Positions 1-39,306 of a DNA stretch of 64,000 nucleotides are shown here, piece after piece. The notes beneath the pieces were generated by a model, which was given only the letters and a program-made list of their open reading frames with translations, was not told the origin of the DNA and did not search any database. Position 1 is the first letter of the stretch; each line of letters begins with the position of its first letter. Origin of the DNA: Gammaproteobacteria bacterium (GTDB lineage: Bacteria > Pseudomonadota > Gammaproteobacteria > DSM-16500). A program made the position numbers and the translations under genes. Location: NCBI GenBank assembly GCA_013287885.1, contig JABDCZ010000003.1, forward strand, positions 12,801-76,800. Reading direction: 5' to 3'.

Positions 1-8
1 CAAAAGTA

Positions 9-1901: not shown

Positions 1902-2671
1902 TCAGGTGGCGTAAATATTTCTTGTTCATTCAAGTATTGATTTAAATGTTGTTTTACCTCGTGTAAAGACGGAAATGTATAAAAAGCATTTTGATTTTTA
2001 TAATGATTGATAACATTAATACTTTCTTCAGTCCATTGTAGTTTATCTTTTAAATGATGAATAATCGTTTTAAATTGTAGGTTCCAGCAATTCCACGTAT
2101 TTTTTAATGAAACACCTTGTTGTATATCATCGTGAAGCGCGATTAATAACCGTAGCTTAAATGTCGAAAAATTTTTGATTTGTAATTGTGTCACATCATT
2201 TTTTAATTTTTCTAATGACGCATTAAGGTCAGGACGCAAAAAAAATCTAAATATAAATAAGCCATTTTGACGGAGCAATGATTGAATGGAGTGCGTTAAC
2301 ATTTTATATTCGGAGAATGCTAATAAATTATAACATCCATCACCAACAATGAGATCAAATGATGAAGGTTGAAATGGTAAATGTAACCAATGGGCTGCAA
2401 TTGCAATAGATTTTACGTGTCGCGATTGTTTTCTAAAAATTAATTTTATCATATCCATATTTTGATCCACGGTCAGAAGTTTTGTTTTTTCTGGCCATGA
2501 GATGTTAACAATTTCCGGTGTCACACCGAGTAAAAGAACGGTGAGCGGTCGATAATTTGTTTGATAATAGCGATAAATCCATTGCGTTAAAACTTGTATA
2601 TCCATTGTTGAGGGTCTTAATGGTTCCGTAATCTGATCCCAGTGGATCGCTTGCTTGTCCCAATGCGACAT
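1853..2671 (-). CDS. Putative class I SAM-dependent methyltransferase-like protein
   Basis: 272-aa ORF. VLLLGVTPEI ... DLIVGDGCYNLL ... NGLFIFRF resembles methyltransferase motifs I, post-I and II without a canonical GxGxG. Its 3' end overlaps the convergent ATP-grasp gene by 49 nt. Confidence 0.45.
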   Translation of the reverse strand: MSHWDKQAIHWDQITEPLRPSTMDIQVLTQWIYRYYQTNYRPLTVLLLGVTPEIVNISWPEKTKLLTVDQNMDMIKLIFRKQSRHVKSIAIAAHWLHLPFQPSSFDLIVGDGCYNLLAFSEYKMLTHSIQSLLRQNGLFIFRFFLRPDLNASLEKLKNDVTQLQIKNFSTFKLRLLIALHDDIQQGVSLKNTWNCWNLQFKTIIHHLKDKLQWTEESINVINHYKNQNAFYTFPSLHEVKQHLNQYLNEQEIFTPPDQLSVCCPTFVFSKQK

Positions 2672-2833
2672 TTGATTCCTTTGAAGTTATTATAACAACT
2701 AAGATTTTGCCACAAATTAAGCGAAGGATTAAATGAAAAAATTATTGTAGATTAGTGCGGTCTGAAAAATTTCTTGGTAAAATAAAGACACGCCTGAGTT
2801 GTATATTAGTATCATATGTAGTATCATGCGCAG

Positions 2834-3085
2834 ATGACAAAAATCGATAAAATAATTAGTAAGATGCATAATAATCCTAGAAATTGGCAGATTTCGGATC
2901 TTATGGTTATTGCTAATCGTTTTGATATTCAGGTGAGAAATGGAAAAGGGAGTCATGTATGTTTTACACATACAAAATGGATAGACATTTTAACCATCCC
3001 GGCTCACCGACCAATAAAACCTATATATGTAAAAAAGTTTTTATCATTAATTGCTTCATTGGAAGCGGAGGAAATATGCGAGTAA
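2834..3085 (+). CDS. hicA: HicA-family type II toxin (mRNA interferase)
   Basis: 83 aa. The pattern ...NPRNWQISDLMVIANRFDIQVRNGKGSHVCFTH... is typical of HicA/YcfA. It is immediately followed by, and overlaps, a HicB-like gene. Confidence 0.8.
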   Translation: MTKIDKIISKMHNNPRNWQISDLMVIANRFDIQVRNGKGSHVCFTHTKWIDILTIPAHRPIKPIYVKKFLSLIASLEAEEICE

Positions 3086-3471
3086 AAATTCCTGAATATC
3101 CATTTACTATAAGACATCTTTCCAATGAAGAAGGAACTGGATATTTAATTGAGTTTCCAGATCTCCCTGGATGCATGTCTGATGGCGAAACTATTGAAGA
3201 AGCTATAAAGAATGGTAAAGATGCAGTACGAGATTGGATGGAAACTGCAAAAGAAATGCGAAGATCTATACCAAAACCTGGGGAATTAGAAAGTCAGAGC
3301 GGCAAATGGGTACAGCGAGTTCCGAAGTCCATACATCTACGACTTGTTAATAAAGCCAAAGAAGAGGGTGTGAGTTTAAATACGTTGGTTATCACAATGC
3401 TTGCTGAATCATTGGGGTCTGTTCCATTAAATCATGCAAAACGTCACTCGATTAAAAAAAGAATTCGTTAA
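3076..3471 (+). CDS. hicB: HicB-family antitoxin
   Basis: Internal ATG at 3076 preceded by GGAGG (3067-3071). YLIEFPDLPGCMSDGETIEEAIKNGKDAVRDWME is the classic HicB N-terminal fold motif, followed by a C-terminal RHH-like tail. Overlaps hicA by 10 nt. Confidence 0.8.
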   Translation: MRVKIPEYPFTIRHLSNEEGTGYLIEFPDLPGCMSDGETIEEAIKNGKDAVRDWMETAKEMRRSIPKPGELESQSGKWVQRVPKSIHLRLVNKAKEEGVSLNTLVITMLAESLGSVPLNHAKRHSIKKRIR

Positions 3472-3508
3472 AGATGTTTAAGTTTTTATAATTTCATTAG
3501 TGCTTTAA

Positions 3509-3799
3509 TCACGCAGCCTTATCCACGGGTTTAATATTTTTATGTACTTTTATCGCATGCCATAAATCCCAGTTTTGTTGTAAATTAAGCCAGAATTGAG
3601 GTTCCATTTGAAATGCGTCAGCGAAGGCAAGCGCTGATTCTGGGCTAACTCCGCGATGGCCATTTATAATTTCATTTAAACGGGTGTAAGTCCAACCTAA
3701 ATGCTCAGAAAATTCTTTTTGAGTGATTCTCATGGGTTCTAAAAATTCTTTTAAAAGCATTTGTCCAGGATGGGTAGGGGGTCGTTTTTTTGGTAGCAT
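3509..3799 (-). CDS. higA: HigA-family antitoxin (HTH, VapI/HigA type), apparently orphan
   Basis: HPGQMLLKEFLEPMRITQKEFSEHLGWTYTRLNEIINGHRGVSPESALAFADAF is the HigA/VapI HTH signature. No intact toxin ORF lies upstream. Confidence 0.8.
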   Translation of the reverse strand: MLPKKRPPTHPGQMLLKEFLEPMRITQKEFSEHLGWTYTRLNEIINGHRGVSPESALAFADAFQMEPQFWLNLQQNWDLWHAIKVHKNIKPVDKAA

Positions 3800-3843
3800 A
3801 ATATTTTTCTCCTAATGATAATCCACAACATCAACATCATGTC

Positions 3844-3864
3844 ATATATCGATATTCGATATAT
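3844..3864. promoter_or_regulatory. Perfect inverted repeat ATATATCGA-TAT-TCGATATAT upstream of higA (candidate operator)
   Basis: Read directly from the sequence. It lies 45-65 nt upstream of the higA start on the minus strand. Confidence 0.4.
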
Positions 3865-4003
3865 TGCAATATCTTTTTTATATCATAAAAAGCGGCCCTG
3901 GAAGGTCAAATTATTGGTGAGTATTTTTCGGGCAGATGGTATAATCTTGGAACAGAAAGTCAGTTGGTTAAATTGTGTACGAAAGAAATGAGAGAGTAAA
4001 GAC

Positions 4004-4714
4004 ATGCTTAAGAGAAAGACCCCCGCCACTAACTTCGCGAGCTTTGCTCGTAACATCCCTAATAGCTCTATCAGAAAAAAACCTGAAAATCTTGAAGATA
4101 GTATTTACAAAGTCAATAAAAAAATTACTGAGCTTGAAACTGCCGATCACAAGATTGATATGAAAATTAAAATTAAAAACGAGCAATTATACTTGTTAGC
4201 AGATCAAATAAAAAAAATCGCTGATCCTCAAACAATTTCTAGTTATCGGGAAATCAGTTCAGAGTTAGCTAGTGCTTTTGAGGAAAAGTTGGAAAATGCT
4301 AAAAATTTAAATAAATTGCATGCAATATCAAAAGAATTAATAGGCGCAGCGATACGCCGGAATTCTCTGCCCCCTCAATCCCAGAGTTCACAAGATTCAA
4401 AAAGTTCTAGCTCTTCTTCTATTTTGCAGGCTTTTGATATGCAGCCATGCGAAAAAAAATCAGAAAATTTATTTGCTATACCTGAAGGTGATGAATTCAC
4501 ATCGGATATTCAAATGACGGATGCATATCTTTTTAATGATCGATTCAATGATAGTTTAAATAATAGTTTAAATAATCCTATGAATGATTCATTGCCAACG
4601 GATTTTTTTTCGCAACCATTAAGTCCGGTCGCGAATATTTCTCCCCACAATGATTTATTCGATGTGCCACTTTTCGATGGTAATGCATCTCCGAGTAAAA
4701 TGGGTTTTCGGTGA
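4004..4714 (+). CDS. Hypothetical protein: coiled-coil N-terminus, Ser-rich linker, N/D-S-L repeats
   Basis: 236-aa ORF followed by a strong terminator. No recognisable domain. Contains SQSSQDSKSSSSSS and NDSLNNSLNNPMNDSL low-complexity tracts. Confidence 0.5.
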   Translation: MLKRKTPATNFASFARNIPNSSIRKKPENLEDSIYKVNKKITELETADHKIDMKIKIKNEQLYLLADQIKKIADPQTISSYREISSELASAFEEKLENAKNLNKLHAISKELIGAAIRRNSLPPQSQSSQDSKSSSSSSILQAFDMQPCEKKSENLFAIPEGDEFTSDIQMTDAYLFNDRFNDSLNNSLNNPMNDSLPTDFFSQPLSPVANISPHNDLFDVPLFDGNASPSKMGFR

Positions 4715-4772
4715 GTGCTGTGAAAATCGTAGCGTTTTTCATGTTCCTCGCAATTGACGATTTTCCGTAGAG

Positions 4773-4812
4773 AAACAACCTTCTTTAAGTACGATAAGAA
4801 GGTTGTTTTTTT
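4773..4812 (+). terminator. Rho-independent terminator, possibly bidirectional between convergent genes
   Basis: 13-bp perfect stem aaacaaccttctt / aagaaggttgttt with a 9-nt loop, followed by a T-run. Confidence 0.65.
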
Positions 4813-4840
4813 AAAAATTGCTGGTGCATTTTAAGAACAA

Positions 4841-5341
4841 CTATGAGGTAAAGGTTTGCCCGTGTGATGGTGTGAAACCTATATTTTTTATTATTTCTGT
4901 CAATCGCTCATCGATTTTCTTTATTTCATCTATAGTTGGTTTTGCCTTTAAATTATCATAATATTCATTAATTGCAATTTTAAGATAACCTATTGTGGCC
5001 ACTAGTGCGGCGGGTGTCACTGTAATAGCTGCGGCAGTCGAATCAGATACATAGTTTTTAAATATATCGTGTGAAGAAAAACCAAGAAGAATGCTGACAA
5101 CCAAAGTGCAAGCCGCATTCCATGTCACGTTATTACTTTCATCTGAATTTTTTTTGGAATTCAATTTTTTTGATTTCTCTAAGGTTCGAATTAACTCTTG
5201 TCTTTCTTTAAGCAAAGATTGGGCGTCTGAATTTGATGAAAGAAGTTGTAGAACTTTTTCATCTGATTTATCAAAAAAGGTACCATAACCTGAGCGCATA
5301 GCAATATCCTTTATAATTTTAATAAGCGCGCAAGCTATCAT
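4841..5341 (-). CDS. Hypothetical membrane protein with a bilobed hydrophobic segment
   Basis: 166-aa ORF. The hydrophobic pair ACTLVVSILLGF ... AAAITVTPAALVATIGYL is flanked by coiled-coil-like charged regions. Confidence 0.45.
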   Translation of the reverse strand: MIACALIKIIKDIAMRSGYGTFFDKSDEKVLQLLSSNSDAQSLLKERQELIRTLEKSKKLNSKKNSDESNNVTWNAACTLVVSILLGFSSHDIFKNYVSDSTAAAITVTPAALVATIGYLKIAINEYYDNLKAKPTIDEIKKIDERLTEIIKNIGFTPSHGQTFTS

Positions 5342-5379
5342 TAAAGTTACAAAAAATCAAGAAAGCGAAGGACGAACAC

Positions 5380-6537
5380 TTAACCTGCCGACGATTCTAT
5401 CAAGCAATTTGAAGCAATTGATCGACGAATTTCGACTTCACGTGGTGCTTTATAGCCACCGATCATTCCTTCTTTGGTAAAAACAATTTGCCAAAGATGC
5501 ATGGCACGTGCACGAAAAGTCCCGGCGCAAGATAATAAATAATAATTCCACATGCGATAAAACTTTTCATCATACTTGGATGTTAACAACGGCCAATTTG
5601 CTTCAAAATTTTTATGCCATGCCATCAAAGTTTTATCGTAATCTGCTCCAAAATTATGCCAATCTTCCATCACGAAAAATTTTTCGGATGCTTTCGCAAT
5701 CAATGCAATGGAAGGCAGCATTCCATTCGGAAAAATATATTTGGTGATCCATTCGTTGGGGTATTCTGCAAATGTATTCCCGATGGTATGAAGCAGAAAA
5801 ACACCGTCATTTTTTAAACATCGATGTACGGTTTGCATGTAAATTTTATAATTTAAAAATCCCACATGCTCAAACATGCCAAGGGATACAATGCGATCGA
5901 ATTTTTCTTTCATATCTCGGTAATCTTGCAAACGAATTTGAATGGGCAAACCTTCGCAAACTTTTTTGGCGTGTGCTTGTTGCTCTTTTGAGATAGTGAC
6001 ACCCACGACTTCAACACCGTAATGTTCTGCGGCATATTTCGCAAGTCCACCAAATCCACAACCAATATCAAGTAATCGCATTCCGGGTTTTAATAATAAT
6101 TTTTGACAAGTTAATTCTAGCTTTGCGAGTTGCGCTTCTTCCAAATTTTTAGCGTTTTGCCAATATCCACAGGTGTAGTTCATATGGCTATCTAACATTT
6201 TCTGAAAAAGATCCGTGCCGAGGTCATAATGTTTTTTTCCAACCGTCCACGCACGTTTTTGCGTTTGAAAATTTAAAATTTTGCTCAATGCAATTTTTAA
6301 AAGAAAGCGTTTGTTTTTTTTGATTTTATAGCCTATATTACTGCGATTGATTTTATCGAAAAGTTTATCGAGACTTTTTGTATCCCACCAACCTTCCATG
6401 TAACTCTCGCCGAATCCCAACGGTCCGTCTCGCAAAATGCGCGCATAAAAATCCGGGTGATGCACTTCTAAATCTCCGGGAATTTCAATGTTAGCGAGTT
6501 GGATAAGTTCCTTGACGATTTTTTCAGCAGTTTCCAT
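5380..6537 (-). CDS. cfa: Cyclopropane-fatty-acyl-phospholipid synthase
   Basis: 385 aa. Carries LLDIGCGFGGLAKYAAEHYGVEVVGVTISKEQ, FDRIVSLGMFEHVG and the typical Cfa C-terminus. Confidence 0.9.
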   Translation of the reverse strand: METAEKIVKELIQLANIEIPGDLEVHHPDFYARILRDGPLGFGESYMEGWWDTKSLDKLFDKINRSNIGYKIKKNKRFLLKIALSKILNFQTQKRAWTVGKKHYDLGTDLFQKMLDSHMNYTCGYWQNAKNLEEAQLAKLELTCQKLLLKPGMRLLDIGCGFGGLAKYAAEHYGVEVVGVTISKEQQAHAKKVCEGLPIQIRLQDYRDMKEKFDRIVSLGMFEHVGFLNYKIYMQTVHRCLKNDGVFLLHTIGNTFAEYPNEWITKYIFPNGMLPSIALIAKASEKFFVMEDWHNFGADYDKTLMAWHKNFEANWPLLTSKYDEKFYRMWNYYLLSCAGTFRARAMHLWQIVFTKEGMIGGYKAPREVEIRRSIASNCLIESSAG

Positions 6538-6582
6538 GAGAGAGCCTCTTTCAATATAAACGAGTCTAGGAGATTATTTTAT

Positions 6583-8103
6583 ATGACACTTGCTATTATT
6601 CATAGTCGGGCAAGCGCCGGAGTCCTTGCGCCCCTGATTACGGTGGAAGTTCATTTATCACCTGGTATTCCTCGGGTGAATATTGTGGGACTTCCGGAAG
6701 CGGAGGTGAAAGAAAGCAAAGATCGCGTGCGCAGCGCTTTGCTCAATATGGAGTTTAAATTTCCACGTAAGCGTTTAACAATTAATTTAGCGCCGGCTGA
6801 TTTACCAAAGGAAGGCGGGCGCTTTGATTTGCCGATCGCGCTCGGCATTTTAATTGCGTCAAAACAACTGATGCTTCGCGCTGAATTGTCACAGATGGAA
6901 TTTGTGGGAGAGCTGGCTTTATCTGGGGAATTGCGATCCATTAGCGGTATATTACCGATTGTGCTTGGTGCTATGGCGGCAAAGCATCAACTCATCATTC
7001 CTGAAGCCAATGCATTAGAGGCGGGCTTGGTAAATGGGGCAAAAGTGTATTTTGCTAAGCATTTATTGGAGGTGTGCGCATATCTGCAAGGCGAAGCTAC
7101 GCTTCCAGCATGTGAAAACAAAACAGTGATAAATCATGCTTCCGAACGTTTGGATTTAAGTGATGTGAGAGGCCAAAGTACTGCAAAGCGCGCTTTAGAA
7201 GTTGCGGCTGCAGGTCATCATCATTTATTACTCATCGGTTCGCCCGGTGCTGGTAAAACGATGTTAGCGAATCGTATTACTGGCATTCTTCCCGATGTCA
7301 CGGAGGAAGCGGCCTTGGAAATTGCAGCGATCGCATCCATCACGCGACGCGGCTTTAATTATAATGATTGGCAACGCATTCCTTTTCGTAGTCCACATCA
7401 TAGCGCATCTTCCATTGCATTAGTGGGAGGCGGGCGACCGCCCAGGCCGGGTGAAATTTCACTGGCACATCAAGGTGTTTTATTTTTGGATGAATTAACA
7501 GAATTTCAACGGCAAGTTTTAGAATCATTACGAGAACCCTTGGAGGCTGGGCAGATCACGATTTCTCGTGCATCTTATCAAGAAATTTTCCCAGCAAAAT
7601 TTCAACTTATTGCTGCGATGAATCCTTGCCCATGCGGTTACGCGGGAAGTGGTGAAGATAACTGTCGCTGTACCAATGAACAAATTGAGCGTTATTTAGC
7701 AAAATTATCTGGACCTTTATTAGATCGTATTGATTTGCATGTCGAGGTGAGCGCTCCGCCACCAGAGATGCTCTCTATAAAAGTAGACAATCAGGCAGAA
7801 AGTATAGTAGTAAAGGAAAGAGTGGTTGAGACGCGAGAAAGACAGATAAAACGTCAGGGAAAATACAATTATGAATTAAGTGGTAATGAATTAATAGAAT
7901 ATTGCTCGATATCAACGGAATCACAAACGATGTTAAACCAAGTGATACGAAAATTTAATTTAAGCGCGCGCGCTTACCACCGAATTTTGAAAGTCGCACG
8001 CACCATTGCGGATCTGGAGGATGCGGCAAGTATTTCAAAAGTGCATTTAAGCGAGGCGTTGTTATATCGTAGTTTAGATAAGTCAAAATATGTACTGAAG
8101 TAA
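6583..8103 (+). CDS. comM: YifB/ComM family Mg-chelatase-like ATPase
   Basis: ATG at 6583 follows TAGGAG and gives 506 aa. Has a Lon-like N-domain, Walker A GSPGAGKTMLA, GVLFLDELTEF and a CPCG zinc motif. The 6499 start in the ORF track would overlap cfa. Confidence 0.9.
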   Translation: MTLAIIHSRASAGVLAPLITVEVHLSPGIPRVNIVGLPEAEVKESKDRVRSALLNMEFKFPRKRLTINLAPADLPKEGGRFDLPIALGILIASKQLMLRAELSQMEFVGELALSGELRSISGILPIVLGAMAAKHQLIIPEANALEAGLVNGAKVYFAKHLLEVCAYLQGEATLPACENKTVINHASERLDLSDVRGQSTAKRALEVAAAGHHHLLLIGSPGAGKTMLANRITGILPDVTEEAALEIAAIASITRRGFNYNDWQRIPFRSPHHSASSIALVGGGRPPRPGEISLAHQGVLFLDELTEFQRQVLESLREPLEAGQITISRASYQEIFPAKFQLIAAMNPCPCGYAGSGEDNCRCTNEQIERYLAKLSGPLLDRIDLHVEVSAPPPEMLSIKVDNQAESIVVKERVVETRERQIKRQGKYNYELSGNELIEYCSISTESQTMLNQVIRKFNLSARAYHRILKVARTIADLEDAASISKVHLSEALLYRSLDKSKYVLK

Positions 8104-8190
8104 TACGGCGGACATTATATCGATTATAATGAACAGAGGGATGGTGTTAATAATTGATTAAAATTTATCCAATATAAGTGAGGGGTGTGC

Positions 8191-8571
8191 ATGGCGAATA
8201 TGATTTTTTATCCAAAACATGGCGAACTTACTTCAAGTAACACAAAAGACAAATTAGATGCTTTATTGGCTGCGGCAGAGCAGTATAAAGCAATTATTCT
8301 TGATCCTGATAAAAAAGACATTAATGACCCGACCAAACGTCAGGTTCCTCGTGAAATGATGTATTCCTATAATTGGGATGAATTAGCCAAATTATTGCGA
8401 GAAATCCGAGATTTCCCCGAAAATTCCTCTGCTAACCGTATCAGTAAAGCTGAAAACTTATCAAAACTTGCTGAAATTTACGAAGTCCTCCGCGGCGCCA
8501 AAATGGCCAAGCTCGAAGCCGTCCGACTGGCTTTAGTCAATGAAGCTGGTCAATTGAAGGGTGGTGTTTAG
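8191..8571 (+). CDS. Hypothetical protein, full-length copy of a duplicated gene
   Basis: 126 aa from the ATG at 8191 (GTGAGGGG upstream). Its C-terminal 85 aa are nearly identical to ORF 10437..10730. Confidence 0.55.
   Translation: MANMIFYPKHGELTSSNTKDKLDALLAAAEQYKAIILDPDKKDINDPTKRQVPREMMYSYNWDELAKLLREIRDFPENSSANRISKAENLSKLAEIYEVLRGAKMAKLEAVRLALVNEAGQLKGGV
8311..8571 (+). repeat. Left copy of a ~260-bp direct repeat flanking the AbiE module
   Basis: By-eye alignment with 10467..10730 gives roughly 90 percent nucleotide identity with no indels over most of the length. Confidence 0.8.
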
Positions 8572-8715
8572 GCTCGCTCATTTAGCTTTCACTCCCCTGC
8601 AATGGTTTTAAATAAGGCGGCAACACAGGGGGTTAAACAGCATATATTATTGAAACTTATGACGCTTGATTTTTGTCAGAAAACAATATATATTTTATGA
8701 CAAGAGGATTGAAAT

Positions 8716-9321
8716 ATGAGTACCACCCATAAAGTTCAACAATATGTCCAAAAAACACCGCGAGGCAAGCCATTTACGACCAGCGCCTTGATGGGCTTTG
8801 GCACGCGTGCAGCAGTAGACCAAGCGCTTTCTAGACTTACTGCCACTGGGAAGGTGGTTAGATTAACTCGTGGCGTTTATGTGCGCCCTGAAGAAAATCG
8901 TTTCGTTGGACAGGTATTGCCAGAACCCTTTAAAGTTGCTGAAGCAATTGCAAAAAAAACAAATGAACAAATACAAGTAAGCGGAGCAGAAGCAGCTAGA
9001 CAGCTTGGTCTATCTACACAAGTACCAGCTCAACCAATCTTCTTAACTACTGGACAATCGCGAAAATTTAACCTGGGTGGATTAGAAGTAACACTCAAAC
9101 ATGTAAGCAGAAAAAAAATCCCGCTGTCTGAATCAAAAGTTGGATTAGCTATTCTTGCTTTATGGTATCTCGGTAAAACCCTTATATCTAAAGAAACTAT
9201 CAACAAAATTGAAAATCGGCTTACACCACAAGAATTCGAAAAATTTACATCGTCAACGGAATATATGCCCGCATGGATGAGCAATGTAGTTTTACAATAT
9301 AAAAATTCAAAGGAAATATAA
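8716..9321 (+). CDS. AbiEi-like antitoxin / winged-HTH regulator (DUF6088-like)
   Basis: 201 aa. The N-terminal segment FTTSALMGFGTRAAVDQALSRLTATGKVVRLTRGVYVRP is typical of AbiEi-type partners. The stop lies 1 nt before the AbiEii start. Confidence 0.65.
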   Translation: MSTTHKVQQYVQKTPRGKPFTTSALMGFGTRAAVDQALSRLTATGKVVRLTRGVYVRPEENRFVGQVLPEPFKVAEAIAKKTNEQIQVSGAEAARQLGLSTQVPAQPIFLTTGQSRKFNLGGLEVTLKHVSRKKIPLSESKVGLAILALWYLGKTLISKETINKIENRLTPQEFEKFTSSTEYMPAWMSNVVLQYKNSKEI

Positions 9322-9322
9322 T

Positions 9323-10333
9323 ATGTCTGAGCCATATTTATCATTATCACAAAAAGAACAAGCTCAAATATTAAGATCATTATCAACTAATCCAAACATT
9401 AAAAGAGACGCTATTCTTTTGGAAAAAGATATTTGGATATGCTGGGCGTTGGAATATTTATTTAAAATGCCAAACCGATTTCCTATGGCGTTTAAAGGTG
9501 GAACATCTTTATCGAAAGCATTTCGTGTAATCGATCGATTTTCAGAAGACGTAGATATTACCATAGATTATAAAGCTTTTAATTGCGATAATCCTTTTGC
9601 TGATGGGGTTAGCAAAACTAAGATTAAAAATATTGGTATTCAACTCCGATCAATGTTAACTCAACATATTAATGAAATAATCATTCCATATTTTGAAAAA
9701 ATCATATCGGAACAATTTACAAATAACTCACCTCGTGTAGAGCTAGATAACGACGGCGAAACAATGTATTTACATTATCCGTCTGTAATAGAGCAAAAAA
9801 GTGGATATGTCATTGATAATGTCAAACTGGAATTTGGCGGTAGAAATATAACCATACCAAGTAGCAAACAAACTATAACAACGGATATTTTTGAGTATCT
9901 CATAGATCTAGAATTTCCTGTAGCTGAGGCAACAACTTTATCACCTGAAAAAACATATTGGGAAAAACTCACATTGATTCACTATGAATGCAATCGCCCC
10001 ACGCTTAAAGAGGATGCAAATCGAATTTCAAGGCATTGGTATGATGTATCAATGCTATCCAAAAATGACATTGGCAAAAAAGCGCTTACTAATCGCGACC
10101 TTCTGAATGAAGTAATTAAAGTTAAAAAGACCTTTTATGATTCAGGATTTGCAAAATATGACGATTGTCTGAATGGAAATTTACGGCTAATACCAAATGA
10201 GGATTACCTTCAGCTGCTCAAAGATGATTTTAACAAGATGCTTAGTAATAAAATGTTTTACGGTCAGCAACCAAATTTCGATAATATAATCTCTGAGATA
10301 AGAAAATTGGAAAACTTAATCAATGGAAAATGA
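9323..10333 (+). CDS. AbiEii/AbiGii-family nucleotidyltransferase toxin (type IV TA / abortive infection)
   Basis: 336 aa. FKGGTSLSKAF...RFSEDVDITI is the DUF1814/AbiEii nucleotidyltransferase signature. Confidence 0.85.
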   Translation: MSEPYLSLSQKEQAQILRSLSTNPNIKRDAILLEKDIWICWALEYLFKMPNRFPMAFKGGTSLSKAFRVIDRFSEDVDITIDYKAFNCDNPFADGVSKTKIKNIGIQLRSMLTQHINEIIIPYFEKIISEQFTNNSPRVELDNDGETMYLHYPSVIEQKSGYVIDNVKLEFGGRNITIPSSKQTITTDIFEYLIDLEFPVAEATTLSPEKTYWEKLTLIHYECNRPTLKEDANRISRHWYDVSMLSKNDIGKKALTNRDLLNEVIKVKKTFYDSGFAKYDDCLNGNLRLIPNEDYLQLLKDDFNKMLSNKMFYGQQPNFDNIISEIRKLENLINGK

Positions 10334-14078: not shown

Positions 14079-15146
14079 ATGGTGAAAACAAAACCACGAT
14101 TATTAACCGGCGATACACCCACCGGGCGATTGCACTTAGGGCATTATGTTGGATCGCTCGAAAATCGAATTGCGTTACAAAACGATTATGATTGTTATTT
14201 CATTATCGCGAATATCCATGCTTTTACCACGCGTTCGGATAAACCCGCGGAAATTCATCAAAGCGTGATTGATATTGCGATGGATTATTTAGCCGCTGGT
14301 ATTGACCCCGCGAAATCCACCATTTTTATTCAATCAGACATTCCTGCGATTGCAGAGCTCACTTATTTTTTTAGCATGTTGTTGCCTTTGGCGCGAGTGA
14401 TGCGAAATCCCACGATTAAAGATGAAATTCGCGATAAAAAATTAGGGGATAATTATCCTTTTGGATTTTTACTTTATGCAGTCGGTCAAGTGGCAGACAT
14501 TTTAGCGTTTCGCCCGGACATTGTGCCGGTGGGCGAGGATCAAATTCCGCATATCGAAATGACGCGTGAAGTCGCCCGAAAATTTAATCAGTTATATTGC
14601 GGTGTCGATCCGCATACGGAAGATAAGGATTATTTAAACGCAGGTGGGTTGTTTCCGATTGTTGAAACCAAATTGGGTCGCCAAAAACGGTTGGTTGGCA
14701 CCACGCCTCCTGATGAGAATGGTAACCTATTAAAAATGTCAAAATCACTGCATAACGCTATCTTTTTAAGTGATGATGCCGATACGATTGTCAAAAAAGT
14801 GATGGGAATGTACACCGATCCCAAACGATTAAAAGCAAGCGATCCAGGGTCCACTGAAAATAATCCGTTATGGATTTTTCATGATACTTTTAATCCTGAT
14901 ACCGCATGGGTTAATGATGCTAAAGCGCGTTACCGAGAAGGAAAGATTGGCGATGTGGAGTGTAAAAAACGTTTAATCGAGGTGCTCGAAAATCTGATTA
15001 AACCAATACGTGAACGTCGCGCGCATTTTATGGATGATGAATCAGAAGTCATTAAAATATTGAAAAATGGGGCAGAAAAAGCGAATATGGTGGCGATGGA
15101 GACGCTAAAATTGGCCAAAATCGCCATGAAACAAAATTATTTTTAG
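14079..15146 (+). CDS. trpS: Tryptophan--tRNA ligase
   Basis: 355 aa. Class I motifs TGRLHLGHY and KMSKS, with TrpRS-typical spacing and GEDQ. Confidence 0.93.
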   Translation: MVKTKPRLLTGDTPTGRLHLGHYVGSLENRIALQNDYDCYFIIANIHAFTTRSDKPAEIHQSVIDIAMDYLAAGIDPAKSTIFIQSDIPAIAELTYFFSMLLPLARVMRNPTIKDEIRDKKLGDNYPFGFLLYAVGQVADILAFRPDIVPVGEDQIPHIEMTREVARKFNQLYCGVDPHTEDKDYLNAGGLFPIVETKLGRQKRLVGTTPPDENGNLLKMSKSLHNAIFLSDDADTIVKKVMGMYTDPKRLKASDPGSTENNPLWIFHDTFNPDTAWVNDAKARYREGKIGDVECKKRLIEVLENLIKPIRERRAHFMDDESEVIKILKNGAEKANMVAMETLKLAKIAMKQNYF

Positions 15147-15502: not shown

Positions 15503-15608
15503 AGATTTAATGGAATACCGAACTTTAAAATTACCTTTGTTAAAGTTGATGTCGTTGCTTGCTGTTTTAGGTGTTGCGGCAACGCTTTTGTTGCATTACT
15601 TTTTTTAA
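15486..15608 (+). CDS. Possible 40-aa single-TM peptide overlapping the preceding ORF
   Basis: MNPKNEDLMEYRTLKLPLLKLMSLLAVLGVAATLLLHYFF. Overlaps the 15200..15502 ORF by 17 nt and is followed by a REP hairpin. Confidence 0.3.
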   Translation: MNPKNEDLMEYRTLKLPLLKLMSLLAVLGVAATLLLHYFF

Positions 15609-15967: not shown

Positions 15968-15995
15968 TTTACATATAAAAAAACTATGATAAAAT
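15968..15995 (+). promoter_or_regulatory. Candidate sigma-70 promoter for the 16022-21490 operon
   Basis: TTTACA (15968-15973), 16-nt spacer, then an extended -10 TGaTAAAAT (15987-15995). GAGGAG follows at 16007-16012 and the ATG at 16022. Confidence 0.35.
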
Positions 15996-16021: not shown

Positions 16022-17341
16022 ATGAGCTCGGCATCCTATGAAGAAACACGTTGGGATGAAGTGAGGGAAAAGGTACAAAAAGTCAATCCCGGTTTTGCAG
16101 ACGTGGTAGATAAAATCAAATCGAAAAACGATTATCCACTTTTTAAAGTTCGTTATCCTTTTGGTAGTAGTATCATTGACACGGGAAAGTTCCAATTTCC
16201 CCTTTCAGACGGCTCTCTTGCGCCAATGGATCATCCTGGAATCCCAGATCGTGTTCGACAAGAACTCGGCTATCACAACGGTCATATTCCTCTAGGAATG
16301 GTGTTAGATCGATCTGTTGAATTATTTATGCGAACAGAAAATCGTGTCATTCCATTTAATTTGATTAAAGCCGGACGATTAGTCGGTTTAACCTTTGTAT
16401 TAAGCCCCGTGCATGTATGGCCGCAAGCATGGCATATGACATCCGGTGCACGTTCGATTTTTGTTTTACCCAAAATAACCGATATTCATAATCATCGAAA
16501 ATTGTGTCGTGAACGTAAGATTAAAATGCCGCTTGCCCGTGATCTTCGCACACATTGGTCATTATTAACTAAAATGGCAGCGGATGAGAATTTTTCCCAA
16601 AAGTGGCATACCGAAATCCTTTTTTTCTCAAAAAATTGGATAGACAACAAAAAAAATGATAATTGGTTGCGTTTCAATTATTTTTTGTATAAAGATGGAT
16701 GGGCTGCGATTGAGTACATGCTGACAAAAACCATGCATGATCATATTTGGGATATTTTGATTCGTGAATTAACACAATACGAAGTAAAAGCAAGCCCTTT
16801 TATCATCGATGTGACGAAATATATCATCATGGTAGGTCTTGGCGCGGTCCCCGGATTTTCACCGGCAATTAATGATGATGAAGCGCCTATTTGTGGATTA
16901 CAGGAAGACTTTATTCAGCATTATGGCTTAAAAAATTATGCGCCAACGATTATGATTCCGCATCATTTTTCCGTCGAAAATAAGCGTCCGGTGTACTGGT
17001 CTCTTGCAATGCCAACCCATTTTGAATCAACCGTTAAGCCGAAAACCTTGACAAGTACGATGGTGACATTGCGGGAAATTCGTGAAATGATGTTTCATTT
17101 CAAACAGACCATGTTAAAATATTCGAAAACAAGAGATACCAATACTTCTACAGAGGAATTTTTGAATAAAGTACGTTTCGATTTTTTTCACAGCGAACCT
17201 GATGCAGAAGGTCAAATACGTTTAAGTTTAGAAATGCCAAAAGAAGACAACTCACTTACATTTTGTTCACAAAATATGGTTCGTCGATTTTCTGATGTCA
17301 GCCCTTTTGTGCGCGGATGTGTGCGTTTTAATACTATCTAA
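16022..17341 (+). CDS. Uncharacterised 439-aa protein, first gene of the YcaO/TfuA operon
   Basis: Long ORF with a good RBS and no motif I can assign. It ends 20 nt before the 42-aa ORF. Confidence 0.7.
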   Translation: MSSASYEETRWDEVREKVQKVNPGFADVVDKIKSKNDYPLFKVRYPFGSSIIDTGKFQFPLSDGSLAPMDHPGIPDRVRQELGYHNGHIPLGMVLDRSVELFMRTENRVIPFNLIKAGRLVGLTFVLSPVHVWPQAWHMTSGARSIFVLPKITDIHNHRKLCRERKIKMPLARDLRTHWSLLTKMAADENFSQKWHTEILFFSKNWIDNKKNDNWLRFNYFLYKDGWAAIEYMLTKTMHDHIWDILIRELTQYEVKASPFIIDVTKYIIMVGLGAVPGFSPAINDDEAPICGLQEDFIQHYGLKNYAPTIMIPHHFSVENKRPVYWSLAMPTHFESTVKPKTLTSTMVTLREIREMMFHFKQTMLKYSKTRDTNTSTEEFLNKVRFDFFHSEPDAEGQIRLSLEMPKEDNSLTFCSQNMVRRFSDVSPFVRGCVRFNTI

Positions 17342-17361
17342 TTCAACCTTAGGAGAAAATC

Positions 17362-17490
17362 ATGACCGAAAATGTAATTAAAATTGAGGCGATAACAGAA
17401 ATAAGTGTGCAAGAATCGATTGAAAATTCAACCGCAGTTGCTGCCAATATTATTTCAAGTATTGAAAATAATTCTCTCGATTTAACTTAA
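17362..17490 (+). CDS. 42-aa ORF, candidate precursor/substrate peptide of the YcaO-TfuA system
   Basis: AGGAG at 17351-17355, 6-nt spacer, ATG at 17362. My own translation is MTENVIKIEAITEISVQESIENSTAVAANIISSIENNSLDLT*. It is absent from the ORF track (<60 aa) and sits between operon genes with no spare intergenic space. Confidence 0.5.
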   Translation: MTENVIKIEAITEISVQESIENSTAVAANIISSIENNSLDLT

Positions 17491-17505
17491 TTGATTGGTA
17501 TTTTT

Positions 17506-17763
17506 ATGGCTTTTGTGCGAATACCAAGTGTTTTAATGAAATGGATAAATCCTGCGGAAAAATTGAATATCGCGGGTGATACCGTGAGTGTTGTGTTGCA
17601 AAATCTTTTTTTGGATTATCCTTCGCTTAAGCCATTCATATTTCCATCTGATGCGTTATCTCCGTTTATTAATATTTATGTCAATCGCTCACCCGCGCTT
17701 CTTTCAAACGCAGTTAAAGAAAATGATGAAATTGATATTGTAGCTGCGCTTTCCGGAGGATAA
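17506..17763 (+). CDS. ThiS/MoaD-family ubiquitin-like sulfur-carrier protein (C-terminal Gly-Gly)
   Basis: 85 aa from the ATG at 17506, ending ...NDEIDIVAALSGG*. Size, beta-grasp-like pattern and terminal GG fit ThiS/MoaD. It directly precedes an E1-like gene. Confidence 0.75.
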   Translation: MAFVRIPSVLMKWINPAEKLNIAGDTVSVVLQNLFLDYPSLKPFIFPSDALSPFINIYVNRSPALLSNAVKENDEIDIVAALSGG

Positions 17764-17766
17764 TTT

Positions 17767-18876
17767 TTGCAGTTTCATGCTTCCGAAAAAACTCGATATG
17801 CACGCCAACAATTATTGCCTGATATTGGTGAATTAGGGCAGATGCACCTTCGCAATGCCCGCGTGCTTTGCATTGGTGCAGGGGGGTTGGGTTCGCCATT
17901 ATTATTATATCTCGCAGCTGCTGGTGTCGGTACGATTGGTATCGTGGATCATGATATTGTTGAGCTTTCAAATTTACATCGCCAAATTATTTTTAATTCG
18001 GAAGATGTTGGTACAAAAAAAGTTTCTGCAGCTAAAAATAGGATACATGCATTAAATCCGCATATAGAAGTTCTGAGTTATGAAGACAAAATATCACGAG
18101 CCAATGCAGAAAGTATCATTGCATCGTTCGATATTATTGCTGATGGTACCGATAATTTTAACGCACGATACATTATTAATGATGCTTGTTTTCGTTTAAA
18201 AAAACCGAATGTGTCTGCAAGTATTTTCCAATTTGAAGGACAATGTAGCATATTCACCGATGATAATGGTCCGTGCTATCGGTGTTTATACCCCGATATG
18301 CCTTCTTCTCAATGGATGCCTAATTGTGCTGAGAGTGGAGTATTAGGTGTTTTGCCTGGTATATTGGGCACGATACAAGCGACCGAAGTGTTGAAATGGA
18401 TTTTAAAAATAGGCAATTCATTAAAAAATCGTTTATTAACCGTCGATGCGCGAGAAATGCAGTTTCGTGAATTTCAGATTGAAAAAAATCCGCATTGTAT
18501 TTTATGCGGTGAAAATGCATCGCGCGAAAATTTGATTGATAGTTTAATTGATAGAGAGGAGCAATGTATGAATGCTGTTATTCCAGAAATTTCCATTCAA
18601 GAGTTAAAAGCTTTGCAAGATAAAGGCGAAGAATTTGTTTTATTAGACGTGCGTGAACCGAGTGAATACGCTGAATGTGAAATGGGTGGTAAGCTCATTC
18701 CGATTGGTGAATTGGCAGCGCGCGTGAGTGAGCTCGATCCCACCAAAAAAACGATTGTGCATTGTCGTGGGGGTGGACGTAGTAAGCGCGGTGTTGAAAT
18801 ATTAAAAAATGCAGGATTTCACGATGCGCGTAATTTAACGGGTGGGATTACGGCATGGTTGAAAACTTTTCCCTAA
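17767..18876 (+). CDS. MoeB/ThiF-type E1 adenylyltransferase fused to a rhodanese domain (MoeZ/MoeBR type sulfurtransferase)
   Basis: TTG start. RYARQQLLPDIGELGQ..., VLCIGAGGLGSP nucleotide loop, two CxxC pairs (CYRC, CILC), and a C-terminal rhodanese with the active-site loop HCRGGGRS. Confidence 0.9.
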   Translation: MQFHASEKTRYARQQLLPDIGELGQMHLRNARVLCIGAGGLGSPLLLYLAAAGVGTIGIVDHDIVELSNLHRQIIFNSEDVGTKKVSAAKNRIHALNPHIEVLSYEDKISRANAESIIASFDIIADGTDNFNARYIINDACFRLKKPNVSASIFQFEGQCSIFTDDNGPCYRCLYPDMPSSQWMPNCAESGVLGVLPGILGTIQATEVLKWILKIGNSLKNRLLTVDAREMQFREFQIEKNPHCILCGENASRENLIDSLIDREEQCMNAVIPEISIQELKALQDKGEEFVLLDVREPSEYAECEMGGKLIPIGELAARVSELDPTKKTIVHCRGGGRSKRGVEILKNAGFHDARNLTGGITAWLKTFP

Positions 18877-18879
18877 ATT

Positions 18880-18961
18880 CGTCGTCCCGCGACTTGTTCG
18901 CGGGATCCAGTGGCAGCTTCTATGTGGCTCTGGATCCCGCGGACAAGCCGCGGGACGACGG
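18880..18961. repeat. GC-rich compound palindromic element, copy 1 (CGTCGTCCCGCGA...TCGCGGGACGACG family)
   Basis: Conserved ~31-nt arms flank an ~18-nt variable centre. Each arm contains its own hairpin (cccgcga/tcgcggg). Located between the E1 gene and ycaO. Confidence 0.85.
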
Positions 18962-18992
18962 ATATAAGTTTATTTTATGATAGGTTTTCTTT

Positions 18993-20057
18993 TTGCTTAA
19001 AATAGATAAAAAACTACCCCCCTATCTCCAAACTCTCGGCATCACTCGCGTTGCAGACATTACCGGATTAGATTGCATTGGTATTCCAACAGCGCTTGCC
19101 ATTCGTCCGAATGGCAAACATATTTCAGTTTCCATGGGAAAAGGTTTGACGCAAGAATCAGCTTATATTTCAGCAGTCATGGAATCGATGGAAATATTTC
19201 ATTTAGAAAATCCGCCTGCGATTTCTTTTGAAGATATTTATTCAGAAAACTGTGTTTCACCTGCACTTTTTAACACGGGATTTTTTTTAAAAAATAATTG
19301 GGATCATGAAGTCCTTGCATGGACTAAAGCATTTCATCTTTTCGACAATAAAGAAATTTATATTCCTCATGCGCTAACCAATCTTGATTCAACGGTTCCA
19401 TGTGCGCATCGTGCATTTTTCGATGTGAGCACCAATGGCATGGGGGCGGGAGAAAATGTTGATGATGCGATTTGTCATGCGCTTTGTGAGGTGATAGAGA
19501 GGGATAGTTTAGCGCGTTTTGCTTTATTGCCTGATCATATTCGTCAAACAAAATTGTTTAATCAAAGTGAAATATCTTCAACAAATCATGACTTAATTGA
19601 AAAATTTTTACGACAAAATATGTCTTTGAAGATATGGGATATTACTTCTCATTTTAATATTCCAACTTTTCATTGTGTGTGTCATGATCCAAATCCTTTT
19701 CGTTTACAAGGAATTTTTCGAGGAACGGGCACACATTGGAATGCTGATATTGCATTAATACGTGCGCTTTTGGAAGTGGCGCAATCGCGTTTAGCGCTTA
19801 TTTCGGGATCGAGAGATGATATTTTTGCGGAGCAATATGAAATCAAAGTGCTCTGTCATCCCCGTGAAGACGGGGATCCATTCAAAATAAATCACACGGA
19901 GCGTGGGAATGGCAAAATAGATTCGTCAATTTTAAAATCTCAAATTTTAACACGCCTATACGAAAATAATATCAATGATGTATTCATGGTAATACACACA
20001 AAACCTGAATTGAATATTCCTGTCGTACAAGTTTTTATTCCAGGTTTGATGCGATGA
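18993..20057 (+). CDS. YcaO-family ATP-dependent amide-activating enzyme (short, single-domain)
   Basis: 354 aa, TTG start. ITRVADITGLDCIGIPTALAIRP, SAVMESMEIFH, CEVIERDS and the C-terminal IPVVQVFIPGLMR tail match the YcaO ATP/Mg-binding and proline-rich C-terminal motifs. Confidence 0.85.
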   Translation: MLKIDKKLPPYLQTLGITRVADITGLDCIGIPTALAIRPNGKHISVSMGKGLTQESAYISAVMESMEIFHLENPPAISFEDIYSENCVSPALFNTGFFLKNNWDHEVLAWTKAFHLFDNKEIYIPHALTNLDSTVPCAHRAFFDVSTNGMGAGENVDDAICHALCEVIERDSLARFALLPDHIRQTKLFNQSEISSTNHDLIEKFLRQNMSLKIWDITSHFNIPTFHCVCHDPNPFRLQGIFRGTGTHWNADIALIRALLEVAQSRLALISGSRDDIFAEQYEIKVLCHPREDGDPFKINHTERGNGKIDSSILKSQILTRLYENNINDVFMVIHTKPELNIPVVQVFIPGLMR

Positions 20058-21490
20058 ATATTATTGTTTTTTTAGGTCCATCGCTTGCCATTAATGAAGC
20101 GAAAAAAATATTACCCGATGCCATGTATTTACCGCCAGCGGCGGCGGGGGATATTTTGCATGTGATACGTTTAAAACCCAAGATGATTGCCATTATTGAT
20201 GGATTTTTCGAAAAAAAGGCGTCTATTCTTCATAAAGAAATTTTATTTGCTTTGGAATCGGGGATTGCGGTATTTGGTGCAAGTAGTATGGGAGCATTGC
20301 GTGCGCGAGAGTGTCAATTCTATGGAATGATAGGTATTGGCAAAATTTATGAAAAATATTTTGTCGATTGTAATGAAGATGACGCCGTTGCCATGTTGCA
20401 TGCATTATCTTCTGAGGAATATGCGCCAAAAACGATAGCATTAATGGATGTCATTTTTACTTTAGAAAAAGCAGTAGCATCAAATATTATTGATAAAGAA
20501 ATCGCATCTTTAATTGAAAAATCAGCGCGAGAGCTTTTTTATATTTATCGAACATTCGAAAACATTGTAGAAAAAGTTAAACAAAATTCTGAAGTAAATA
20601 TATCTTGTTTTGAAAAATGGATTTTACAAAATGGATGGGTTAATCAGAAAAAAGAAGACGCCATTTCTCTTTTACAATATTTATCAACAAATCCTGAAAT
20701 TAAAAAAATTAATTTTTGTTTTGCGCGTTCTTTGTTTTTTCGTGCACACTATAAAAATGCAATGTGCCAGCCTTTTCCTTTTGATCACGAAGATTTACCT
20801 ATTGCTGAAAAAATTGCAATTCAAGCTAAAAATAATGGAATTATTTATCGACAATTGCAGCGTATCTCTTATTTGCTCGCCATATGTTTTGCGCTTTCCA
20901 AAAAATATGTTGTAGGAGTGGATTGGGGAAAATTAGATACGCCTCAAAAACGATTTTCTGCTATTGAAAATCTTATGCAGACGCAAACCCATTCATCACA
21001 TCTATTTTATTTATATTCTTTAATGCGTTTATCATCCGAAAAGGAATATCAATATTATCGTGATCAAGTTTCATCTGAAGATAAAATGGCAGAAATGTTT
21101 TTAGAAGATTCGCCTGTAAAATACCGTGTATTTGAATTATGTGCAAAATTGTGGGGGCTGGTTGAGCATTTCATTTCGAATTTTTTACCTCACCCGAAGT
21201 TTGTGCAAGTATACAGTGATAAGTTTCGTTTAAAACATGAATTATTAACGCCTGACGATACGATGAAATGGTTACAGCAAAATGATCTTACATTAAAAAC
21301 CTATCAAGATTTGATGACAATGGCGACTCGGTTTAATTATATTGTGATGCAAAATAATGTGGAGGTCTTAGGTATTTTAGATCATGAAGAAAATATTTGG
21401 TGGTTTGGGGATGCGATGGAATTGTCGGGATCAGTTATCTCAATAACGTCGTCCCGCGACTTGTTCGCGGGATCCAGAGCAACATCGTAG
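20054..21490 (+). CDS. TfuA-domain protein with a ~250-aa C-terminal extension
   Basis: N-terminal IVFLGPSL...LPPAAAGDIL...IAIIDGFF...HKEILFALESGIAVFGASSMGALRA is the TfuA signature. The start overlaps the ycaO stop (ATGA). 478 aa in total. Confidence 0.8.
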   Translation: MNIIVFLGPSLAINEAKKILPDAMYLPPAAAGDILHVIRLKPKMIAIIDGFFEKKASILHKEILFALESGIAVFGASSMGALRARECQFYGMIGIGKIYEKYFVDCNEDDAVAMLHALSSEEYAPKTIALMDVIFTLEKAVASNIIDKEIASLIEKSARELFYIYRTFENIVEKVKQNSEVNISCFEKWILQNGWVNQKKEDAISLLQYLSTNPEIKKINFCFARSLFFRAHYKNAMCQPFPFDHEDLPIAEKIAIQAKNNGIIYRQLQRISYLLAICFALSKKYVVGVDWGKLDTPQKRFSAIENLMQTQTHSSHLFYLYSLMRLSSEKEYQYYRDQVSSEDKMAEMFLEDSPVKYRVFELCAKLWGLVEHFISNFLPHPKFVQVYSDKFRLKHELLTPDDTMKWLQQNDLTLKTYQDLMTMATRFNYIVMQNNVEVLGILDHEENIWWFGDAMELSGSVISITSSRDLFAGSRATS

Positions 21491-21527
21491 GGCTTTCTGG
21501 ATCCCGCGAACAAGTCGCGGGACGACG
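21447..21527. repeat. GC-rich compound palindromic element, copy 2, overlapping the 3' end of the TfuA gene
   Basis: Same arms as copy 1. The tfuA reading frame runs into the element, giving ...SSRDLFAGSRATS*. Confidence 0.85.
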
Positions 21528-39223: not shown

Positions 39224-39306
39224 CCGTCGTCCCGCGATTTATTCGCGGGATCCAGAATGGCTTAGTCGCTGTCGCTAGATCCCGCGGACGAGCCGCGGGA
39301 CGACGG
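39224..39306. repeat. GC-rich compound palindromic element, copy 3
   Basis: ccgtcgtcccgcgatttattcgcgggatccag...tagatcccgcggacgagccgcgggacgacgg, between convergent genes. Confidence 0.85.

Follow-up and report, generated by a model that had tools for sequence, protein, structure and literature searches.

To our knowledge, backbone thioamides are rare: two protein targets, McrA and uL16, are known together with a handful of classes of RiPPs (peptides made on ribosomes and modified after translation), and for the many proteobacterial YcaO-TfuA clusters we know almost none of the substrates. The sulfur-carrier chemistry of E1 and rhodanese enzymes is well established. YcaO activates an amide with ATP (PMC5589413), and TfuA, which assists YcaO, hydrolyzes the thiocarboxylated carrier ThiS-COSH (Liu et al. 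2021, as summarized in PMC13063428 and PMC8939145). In methanogens, thiF, moaD, moeB and rhodanese genes stand beside ycaO-tfuA (PMC5589413), ThiF and ThiS homologues sometimes lie within thioamidated RiPP clusters (PMC9576775), and TfuA-related clusters are abundant in Proteobacteria (PMC8120280). We analyzed a YcaO-TfuA operon in a stretch of 64,000 nucleotides from a Gammaproteobacteria bacterium (GTDB lineage DSM-16500; contig JABDCZ010000003.1, positions 12,801 to 76,800), hereafter called the window. We propose, with a probability of about 55%, that it encodes a dedicated backbone-thioamidation system with its own sulfur relay, i.e., a RiPP-like pathway in which a co-encoded peptide of 42 residues would be the most likely substrate.

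The operon consists of six co-directional open reading frames (ORFs) on the plus strand (16022–21490), as a first-pass annotation of this locus had described; all are intact, with no frameshift or internal stop. The first gene (16022–17341) encodes a protein of 439 residues from an unannotated family, here called X439. It is followed by the acidic 42-residue peptide and candidate precursor, pep42 (17362–17490), and by an 85-residue ThiS/MoaD-like sulfur carrier that ends in ALSGG (17506–17763). For the carrier, the ATG at 17506 agrees with the starts of its orthologues, and the mechanical ORF starts at a TTG at 17491. Next come a MoeB/ThiF-type E1 with a C-terminal rhodanese domain (17767–18876, TTG start), a YcaO predicted to be of the TfuA-associated, thioamide-forming type (18993–20057, TTG start) and a long-form TfuA (20054–21490), whose N-terminal TfuA domain (residues ~1–215) precedes an all-helical C-terminal domain (~220–470). 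The tight spacing reported earlier holds for the gaps of 20, 15 and 3 nt and for the 4-nt ATGA overlap of ycaO and tfuA, but not for the 116-nt gap between the E1 gene and ycaO, which contains an 81-nt palindrome with a perfect stem (18880–18960) that the earlier annotation passed over.

Family profiles bore out the identities given before to the four enzymes and carriers. The ThiS-like protein scored 28.9 bits on PF02597 (cut-off 22.5), and its C-terminal Gly-Gly is kept in six orthologues; profile match and C-terminus together identify it as a ThiS/MoaD sulfur carrier. The E1 protein scored 277.5 bits on PF00899 (ThiF) and 55.1 bits on PF00581 (Rhodanese), and GAGGLGS, two CxxC motifs and HCRGGGRS, the rhodanese loop, can be read in its translation. 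With both domains and the active-site Cys loop it is an E1-rhodanese of the MoeZ/Uba4-like kind. It passes the NCBIfam MoeB subfamily model NF004281 (277.1 vs a cut-off of 266) and stays below the MoeZ equivalog (373 vs 647); its best PDB relatives are MoeB (1jw9), ThiF (1zfn) and Uba4 (6yub; 5e-47 for Uba4). The pair resembles MoeZ/MoeBR-CysO, QbsC-QbsE and Uba4-Urm1, where an E1-rhodanese fusion is likewise matched with a beta-grasp carrier ending in GG. In contrast to these, it is tied to YcaO-TfuA and not to cysteine, siderophore or tRNA pathways, is accompanied by no JAMM protease and scores below the equivalog cut-offs. Neither moaE nor thiG nor any other housekeeping sulfur-carrier partner was found in the operon in the ORF list or with Pfam.

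The YcaO protein matched PF02624 with 195.4 bits (gathering score 25.7) over profile positions 1–324 of 325 and hence belongs to the YcaO superfamily. Among the NCBIfam models it scored 186.6 bits on methan_mark_1, 94.8 on SagD (azoline) and 19.6 on YcaO_for_S12 (E. coli-type), and its nearest solved structure is M. jannaschii MJ1094 (1.1e-24). This score ranking and the ATGA overlap with tfuA place it with the TfuA-associated, thioamide-forming YcaOs. That it is not of the E. coli type, as the first-pass reading required, is seen from the 19.6 bits, compared with the cut-off of 700 bits for uL16-modifying enzymes, and from the adjacent tfuA. The E. coli-type YcaO, which thioamidates uL16, shares the superfamily and the backbone chemistry (PMC13063428). 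A ribosomal-protein target such as uL16 is nevertheless unlikely here, because the uL16-type YcaOs form a different clade and are never encoded near TfuA (PMC13063428).

The TfuA protein scored 120.3 bits on PF07812 (cut-off 30) and matched the crystal structure of M. acetivorans TfuA (6xp8) by sequence with 1.8e-24. Its AlphaFold2 model (pLDDT 92.5) has the TfuA fold, with the N-terminal domain superposing on 6xp8 in Foldseek (E 1.3e-12, TM 0.88, rmsd 2.2 Å over 215 columns); the assignment of the N-terminus made before thus stands. Ser78 (GASSMGA) and Lys61 are invariant among 62 long-form homologues, and we infer that they correspond to the published TfuA Ser-Lys pair. The likeness to the McrA thioglycine system, with its YcaO, TfuA and ThiS-COSH donor, shows in several features: the window YcaO scores best on the McrA-type model and on MJ1094, the TfuA N-domain fits the M. 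acetivorans structure, and ycaO and tfuA overlap as in methanogens. On the other hand, the window YcaO reached 186.6 bits on the McrA-glycine thioamidation equivalog TIGR03266 (cut-off 365), and TfuA reached 190.4 bits on NF033432, the equivalog for the TfuA-related McrA-glycine thioamidation protein (cut-off 235.2). Because both scores lie below the cut-offs, the cassette falls outside the McrA equivalogs; judged from its sequence, the YcaO is expected to work like the McrA-glycine family, of which it is not a member. The window differs from the McrA system also in that it has no McrA, belongs to a bacterial host, carries a TfuA with an extra helical domain of ~250 residues and co-encodes a peptide and X439.

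The additional TfuA domain (20700–21470, residues ~220–470) is confidently modeled. It is shared by long-form TfuAs of 470–610 residues from at least ~100 clusters, one of them cyanobacterial (Pleurocapsa), in which W406 is invariant. A fold search of this all-helical domain, tried as a peptide binder like the RiPP recognition element, gave no PDB match, and when just the C-terminal part was used in a word-based search, the window TfuA was the sole protein recovered. The domain may recruit a substrate or partner.

The 42-residue ORF had been singled out for its strong ribosome-binding site, and this holds, with AGGAG 7 nt upstream. ORFs of 41–46 residues directly follow X439 in seven further loci, numbered here L021, L023, L024, L113, L030, L007 and L008, where X439 is 93, 65, 64, 43, 40 (over the part covered by the contig), 43 and 38% identical to that of the window, respectively. 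In L113 the ORF has 41 residues at the same position; in L007 it begins 177 nt downstream of X439 and has 71 residues when counted from the first ATG. Most of these ORFs have a ribosome-binding site match, and for L023 the scan found none. Comparison of pep42 with L021 gave a dN/dS of 0.15 at a dS of 1.2, much like ThiS (pN 0.20, pS 0.57), and the ORF is, on this substitution pattern, a real gene under selection. In the loci examined, no small ORF with a ribosome-binding site follows X439 genes that lack thioamidation genes. The aligned peptides, compared partly by eye, have in common a hydrophobic/acidic stretch at the N-terminus and an [IL]-[GA] motif. Their C-terminal halves vary between clades; within the window clade, the acidic end ...SDD[LM]T is retained. 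The N-terminal half looks more conserved than the C-terminal half, a pattern that is suggestive of a RiPP leader and core. Homology across clades rests on weak similarity (31% mean column identity) and on the conserved position.

The relatives are all metagenomic except for Legionella and Francisella plasmids, and several of their contigs are short; absences near contig ends are uninformative. The full order X439-peptide-ThiS-E1(rhodanese)-YcaO-TfuA was found in L021 and L113 and was partly seen on the short contigs L023 and L024, so that gene order is conserved across 43–93% X439 identity. From the same order in independent assemblies we conclude that the operon is not a chance arrangement. 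ThiS and E1 are also linked to YcaO-TfuA in L007, L008, L030/L051, L033 and L034, as in L113, and on the Legionella plasmids (L026/L029). As the linkage extends to these plasmids, we conclude that the sulfur relay is dedicated to the cassette and that ThiS and E1 are not neighbors by chance, a doubt raised at first pass. Other arrangements differ in detail: a convergent POT-family transporter gene overlaps the tfuA end in L113; a POT transporter and a DUF4143 ATPase are inserted between ThiS and E1 in L007; ~5 kb of unrelated genes separate X439-peptide from ThiS in L030/L051; L008 has two X439 paralogues and two POT genes; in L003/L035, POT-X439 is convergent with YcaO-TfuA, with no ThiS or E1; and L036 has the order YcaO-TfuA-X439. 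The recurrence of the cassette in these arrangements shows that the linkage of sulfur relay, YcaO-TfuA and X439 is ancient and recurrent. Of about 10 independent cassettes, 6 contain or adjoin a POT transporter gene (L003/L035, L007, L008, L113, L026 and L029).

A metagenome scan seeded with YcaO set the limits of this association. X439 occurred only beside YcaOs at least 40% identical to the window YcaO, and ThiS with E1 almost only at that identity, the exceptions being L054 (36%), the E1 of L095 (34%) and a weak ThiS-like match in L071. The other ~70 loci consist of YcaO, usually with TfuA, and have no X439, ThiS or E1. The nearest other pairs of YcaO and long TfuA belong to RiPP-like clusters of an ordinary kind, in which small precursors lie adjacent: L031, with a C39-ABC exporter and a radical SAM enzyme, and L032, with an 80-residue double-glycine precursor.

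Thioamidated RiPP clusters, i.e., thioamitides, thiovarsolin-type clusters and other TfuA-related biosynthetic gene clusters, resemble the window in that YcaO-TfuA lies beside a short precursor-like ORF. Compared with thioamitides, the window operon has no aminovinylcysteine (AviCys) decarboxylase, phosphotransferase/lyase, methyltransferase, oxygenase, protease or ABC exporter among its ORFs and Pfam matches, and a partner like X439 is not known from any RiPP class. A thioamitide in the strict sense is ruled out, as the operon has neither AviCys nor other tailoring genes and pep42 has no Cys. A further reading as a tiarin (trifolitoxin-like) with immunity by an aminoacyl-tRNA synthetase was prompted by the 42-residue precursor and by trpS, which lies upstream of X439 (14079–15146). 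It was rejected: tiarins are defined by a TfxB/TfxC-type FMN dehydrogenase pair and a conserved core Gln motif (bioRxiv 10.64898/2025.12.02.691738), and no TfxB/TfxC-type and no nitroreductase/SagB-like gene is present in the operon. The length of 42 residues common to pep42 and TfxA is a coincidence.

A distantly related cassette resides on Legionella plasmids, of which 26 carry TfuA genes and 27 X439-like genes. In L026 (NZ_CP016875.1, L. pneumophila FFI329 plasmid, 238–9536) and L029 (L. fallonii LLAP-10 plasmid II, 144–9519) we found POT, X439-like, ATP-grasp, ThiS, ThiF, YcaO and TfuA genes, a 61-residue ORF and csrA. A regulator-like gene stands between the POT and X439-like genes, and the cassette adjoins csrA and F-type tra genes. 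Like the window, the plasmids thus have homologous X439-like, ThiS, ThiF, YcaO and TfuA genes in the same order, in a Legionellales host; the X439-like protein is 21% identical to window X439 (E 6e-23), and the carrier ends in ...SISGG. Unlike the window, they have an ATP-grasp ligase in the place of pep42, an E1 without rhodanese and a TfuA of 344 residues; the cassette is plasmid-borne, with a POT gene at its edge. The earlier belief that such a complete arrangement had not been described in a Legionellales-like host did not survive this comparison. At least the two plasmids examined, from L. pneumophila and L. fallonii, carry an annotated MoaD/ThiS-ThiF-YcaO-TfuA cassette, and ycaO/tfu genes beside genes of the Legionella F-type type IV secretion system were drawn in 2011 with "unknown function" (PMC3218107). 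The self-contained character is hence not new, because carrier genes beside YcaO-TfuA are on record for methanogens (PMC5589413), for RiPP clusters (PMC9576775) and, as annotated in RefSeq, for Legionella plasmids. What is new here is the partnership with two uncharacterized families, X439 and the peptides of 41–46 residues, and the link to POT transporters.

X439 had no match in Pfam, NCBIfam, PADLOC or PHROG and none in a sequence-profile search of the PDB, and hhalign found no relation to YcaO or TfuA profiles. Its AlphaFold2 model is confident (pLDDT 92.2, pTM 0.91). In Foldseek it showed a weak likeness to the barrel-plus-long-helix of CRP/FNR or cyclic nucleotide-binding (CNB) proteins and to cupins (best E 2e-3, TMq 0.26), and a search of BFVD gave nothing convincing. 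A word search found 59 homologues, and a profile search of 1.84 billion representatives found 1,621 clusters at 50% identity (904 with E <= 1e-30); the genome scan used 16 X439 sequences. Nearly all of the 150 family proteins listed are full-length at ~440 residues. Invariant residues include S327, H390, D409 and C433, which could be catalytic. Named hosts are Legionellales, Coxiellaceae and unclassified gammaproteobacterial metagenome-assembled genomes, in addition to the 27 Legionella plasmids and one Francisella plasmid. Most members stand alone amid unrelated housekeeping genes; their neighbors include dnaE, ligA, dinB, gltX (in two cases), histidine kinases and, in a single case, an SBP_bac_5 peptide-binding protein. 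Next to the X439-like genes of some Legionella plasmids lie genes for a SAM methyltransferase and a major facilitator superfamily transporter. Residues that separate cassette-linked from lone X439 proteins were sought, and eight clade-specific positions were found, none of them common to the plasmid type; they were uninformative. In two unrelated settings an aminoacyl-tRNA synthetase gene lies closely upstream of X439, namely trpS (window and L021–L024) and gltX (L016, 8314–9711; L017, 1934–3340); this proximity may be due to chance.

In L022 (1954–3318), an X439 that is 79% identical to that of the window continues in frame into the final ~14 residues of ThiS (the fusion ends in ...GCVRLSTPIQNEGELSLIPQFGGG before the stop, also given as ...NEGELSLIPQFGGG). 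The underlying deletion removed pep42 and most of ThiS; an intact E1-rhodanese follows, and an amidohydrolase takes the place of ycaO-tfuA. By its sequence, the fusion may be either an intermediate of decay or a GG-tailed X439 open to the action of E1. Since X439 and E1 are retained in L022 without YcaO-TfuA, X439 can be kept without thioamidation, and E1 may have a further role.

Further observations concern the surroundings of the relatives. In L113, genes of a contractile phage-tail-like structure (tape measure, sheath initiator, baseplate wedge, collar; 1–7300) adjoin the cassette, and a LuxR-type response regulator lies directly upstream of X439. L008, from a metagenome-assembled Legionellales genome, encodes on the minus strand (16403–17083), between the X439 paralogues and ThiS, a protein of 226 residues with a eukaryotic-type SH3 domain (SH3_9, 45 bits), which resembles a eukaryotic-like effector. 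Similar short intergenic ORFs (MLNQ[IM]A…Q[RL]LQNI[VA]PNKIEK…) lie near X439 or ThiS in L001 (9550–9672) and L033 (8350–8490) and probably represent a dispersed repeat, not a gene.

For the pathway that we propose, the E1 domain would adenylate the C-terminal Gly-Gly of the ThiS-like carrier, as expected from its family. The rhodanese Cys in HCRGGGRS would bear a persulfide received from a cysteine desulfurase whose gene lies elsewhere and would convert the carrier to its thiocarboxylate. TfuA would then bind YcaO and hydrolyze the carrier thiocarboxylate to a sulfide equivalent, and YcaO would activate a backbone amide of the substrate with ATP to yield the thioamide. We favor pep42 as the substrate because its gene is under selection and occurs only together with the thioamidation genes, because its conservation is leader/core-like and because the nearest other YcaO/long-TfuA pairs sit in peptide clusters. 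Its conserved N-terminal half may act as leader, and the candidate modification site would be the small residue of the [IL]-[GA] motif, T24-A25-V26 in window pep42. X439 would be a conserved partner with a core function independent of thioamidation that may bind, process or use the peptide. The recurrent POT-family transporters suggest a small peptide product or substrate, which these di/tripeptide transporters may handle in the relatives.

Several observations weigh against this proposal. pep42 lacks Cys, shows no recognizable site for a protease or for leader cleavage and is weakly similar from locus to locus. L033 combines ThiS-E1-YcaO-TfuA with a DUF4143 ATPase and has no X439 or similar peptide within 8.5 kb, and L022 and possibly L023 keep X439 and E1 without YcaO-TfuA. 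No POT gene lies within the 64-kb window, and a very stable hairpin between E1 and ycaO may dampen ycaO-tfuA expression in this genome. Moreover, the plasmid cassette has an ATP-grasp ligase and no pep42-like ORF but keeps the X439-like gene, and X439 is therefore the more constant partner. It is on this constancy, and on the otherwise stand-alone occurrence of X439, that the main rival explanation builds: X439 itself would be the thioamidated protein, following the pattern of McrA and uL16, with pep42 as an accessory, e.g., an adaptor or chaperone. X439 is indeed the most constant neighbor of this YcaO-TfuA clade from the window type to the Legionella plasmids, its family is large and mostly stand-alone, as expected if the modification is optional, and the YcaO scores best on the McrA-type model; McrA, too, remains functional without its thioglycine (PMC5589413). 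We nevertheless consider X439 the less likely substrate, though a serious rival. The closest other YcaO/long-TfuA pairs are found in peptide-type clusters, cassette-linked and lone X439 proteins differ only at few clade-specific positions that are not common to the plasmid type, L033 has no X439 nearby, and the POT transporters and the small selected ORF would be left unexplained. With similarly low odds, X439 may stand for a new functional partnership with backbone thioamidation, either as the third kind of protein to be thioamidated, besides McrA and uL16, or as the user of a thioamide-bearing ligand or cofactor derived from pep42, bound or processed by its CNB/cupin-like barrel.

Somewhat less probable still is that the product is not derived from pep42 at all. 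ThiS/E1 and X439 would then make a sulfur-containing small molecule, in the manner of thioquinolobactin (QbsC/E) or CysO, or YcaO-TfuA would thioamidate a di- or tripeptide that is imported or made by a ligase. The ATP-grasp ligase that replaces the peptide gene on Legionella plasmids would fit this, as would the POT transporters and the single SBP_bac_5 peptide-binding protein among the neighbors. L023, which keeps X439, pep42, ThiS and E1 and has no YcaO in the ~1 kb of contig after E1, and L022, which keeps X439-E1 without YcaO-TfuA, also point in this direction. However, the L023 contig ends at that distance, so YcaO may be displaced, L022 looks like decay by deletion, and X439 bears no detectable signature of a catalytic family. 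We also know of no YcaO that acts on free di- or tripeptides.

Still further from our expectation is a decaying operon or one not expressed as a unit, with ThiS/E1 serving housekeeping needs (molybdopterin, thiamine or tRNA thiolation) and adjacent by chance. Two palindromic insertions would speak for decay. Copy 1, in the gap between E1 and ycaO, forms as RNA a hairpin of -73 kcal/mol (z = -11), and ycaO has a TTG start without a clear ribosome-binding site. Copy 2 (21447–21527) reaches into the 3' end of tfuA, whose last ~14 codons (ITSSRDLFAGSRATS) come from the element; orthologous TfuAs have nothing equivalent to them. Partial losses in relatives such as L022, where E1 outlasts ThiS, YcaO and TfuA, hint at another role for E1. 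Against decay, none of the six ORFs is disrupted, the insertion lies beyond the conserved part of TfuA, gene order is kept at 43–93% X439 identity, the linkage of ThiS-E1 with YcaO-TfuA recurs in many independent arrangements, and the operon contains no housekeeping partner such as moaE or thiG. The dedicated thioamidation operon with pep42 as substrate remains our preferred reading.

The palindromes themselves are ~81 nt long and perfect (CGTCGTCCCGCGACTTGTTCGCGGGATCCAG ... followed by its reverse complement), GC-rich in an AT-rich genome, and encode SSRDLFAGS-like peptides in either direction. They look like mobile elements of the MITE/REP type, and a third, partial copy lies at 39225–39255. 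Copy 2 probably marks the 3' end of the operon; the end assigned in the first-pass annotation, 21527, is where this copy ends. At the E1/ycaO junction of L021 (12830–12900) the window palindrome is absent and a different GC-rich insert is present, which was gene-called as an N-terminal extension of YcaO; small insertions seem to accumulate at this junction. At the other end, a promoter-like site (plus strand, 15968–15995; TTTACA-16 nt-TAAAAT with TG upstream) lies 27 nt before the X439 start. It is the top plus-strand match to a sigma-70-like consensus between 15100 and 22300 (10/12; a consensus match only). A terminator-like hairpin (15575–15595) closes the gene upstream of X439. No Rfam family reached its gathering score across the 64-kb window, i.e., no tRNA, rRNA or riboswitch was found.

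The cassette is a compact, self-sufficient and transplantable test case with two candidate substrates. It ties the large unannotated X439 family (1,621 clusters), confidently modeled but structurally unmatched, to a defined chemistry. Were X439 in fact a new partner of backbone thioamidation, a new product class would result that is restricted to Legionellales-like intracellular bacteria and plasmids and is possibly trafficked by POT transporters. The conjugative Legionella plasmids offer a culturable, genetically tractable homologue of the window cassette, and since cultured Legionella carry it, genetics and metabolomics are feasible. Both host-associated bacteria and conjugative plasmids carry the system, and its product could therefore play a part in competition or in interaction with the host.

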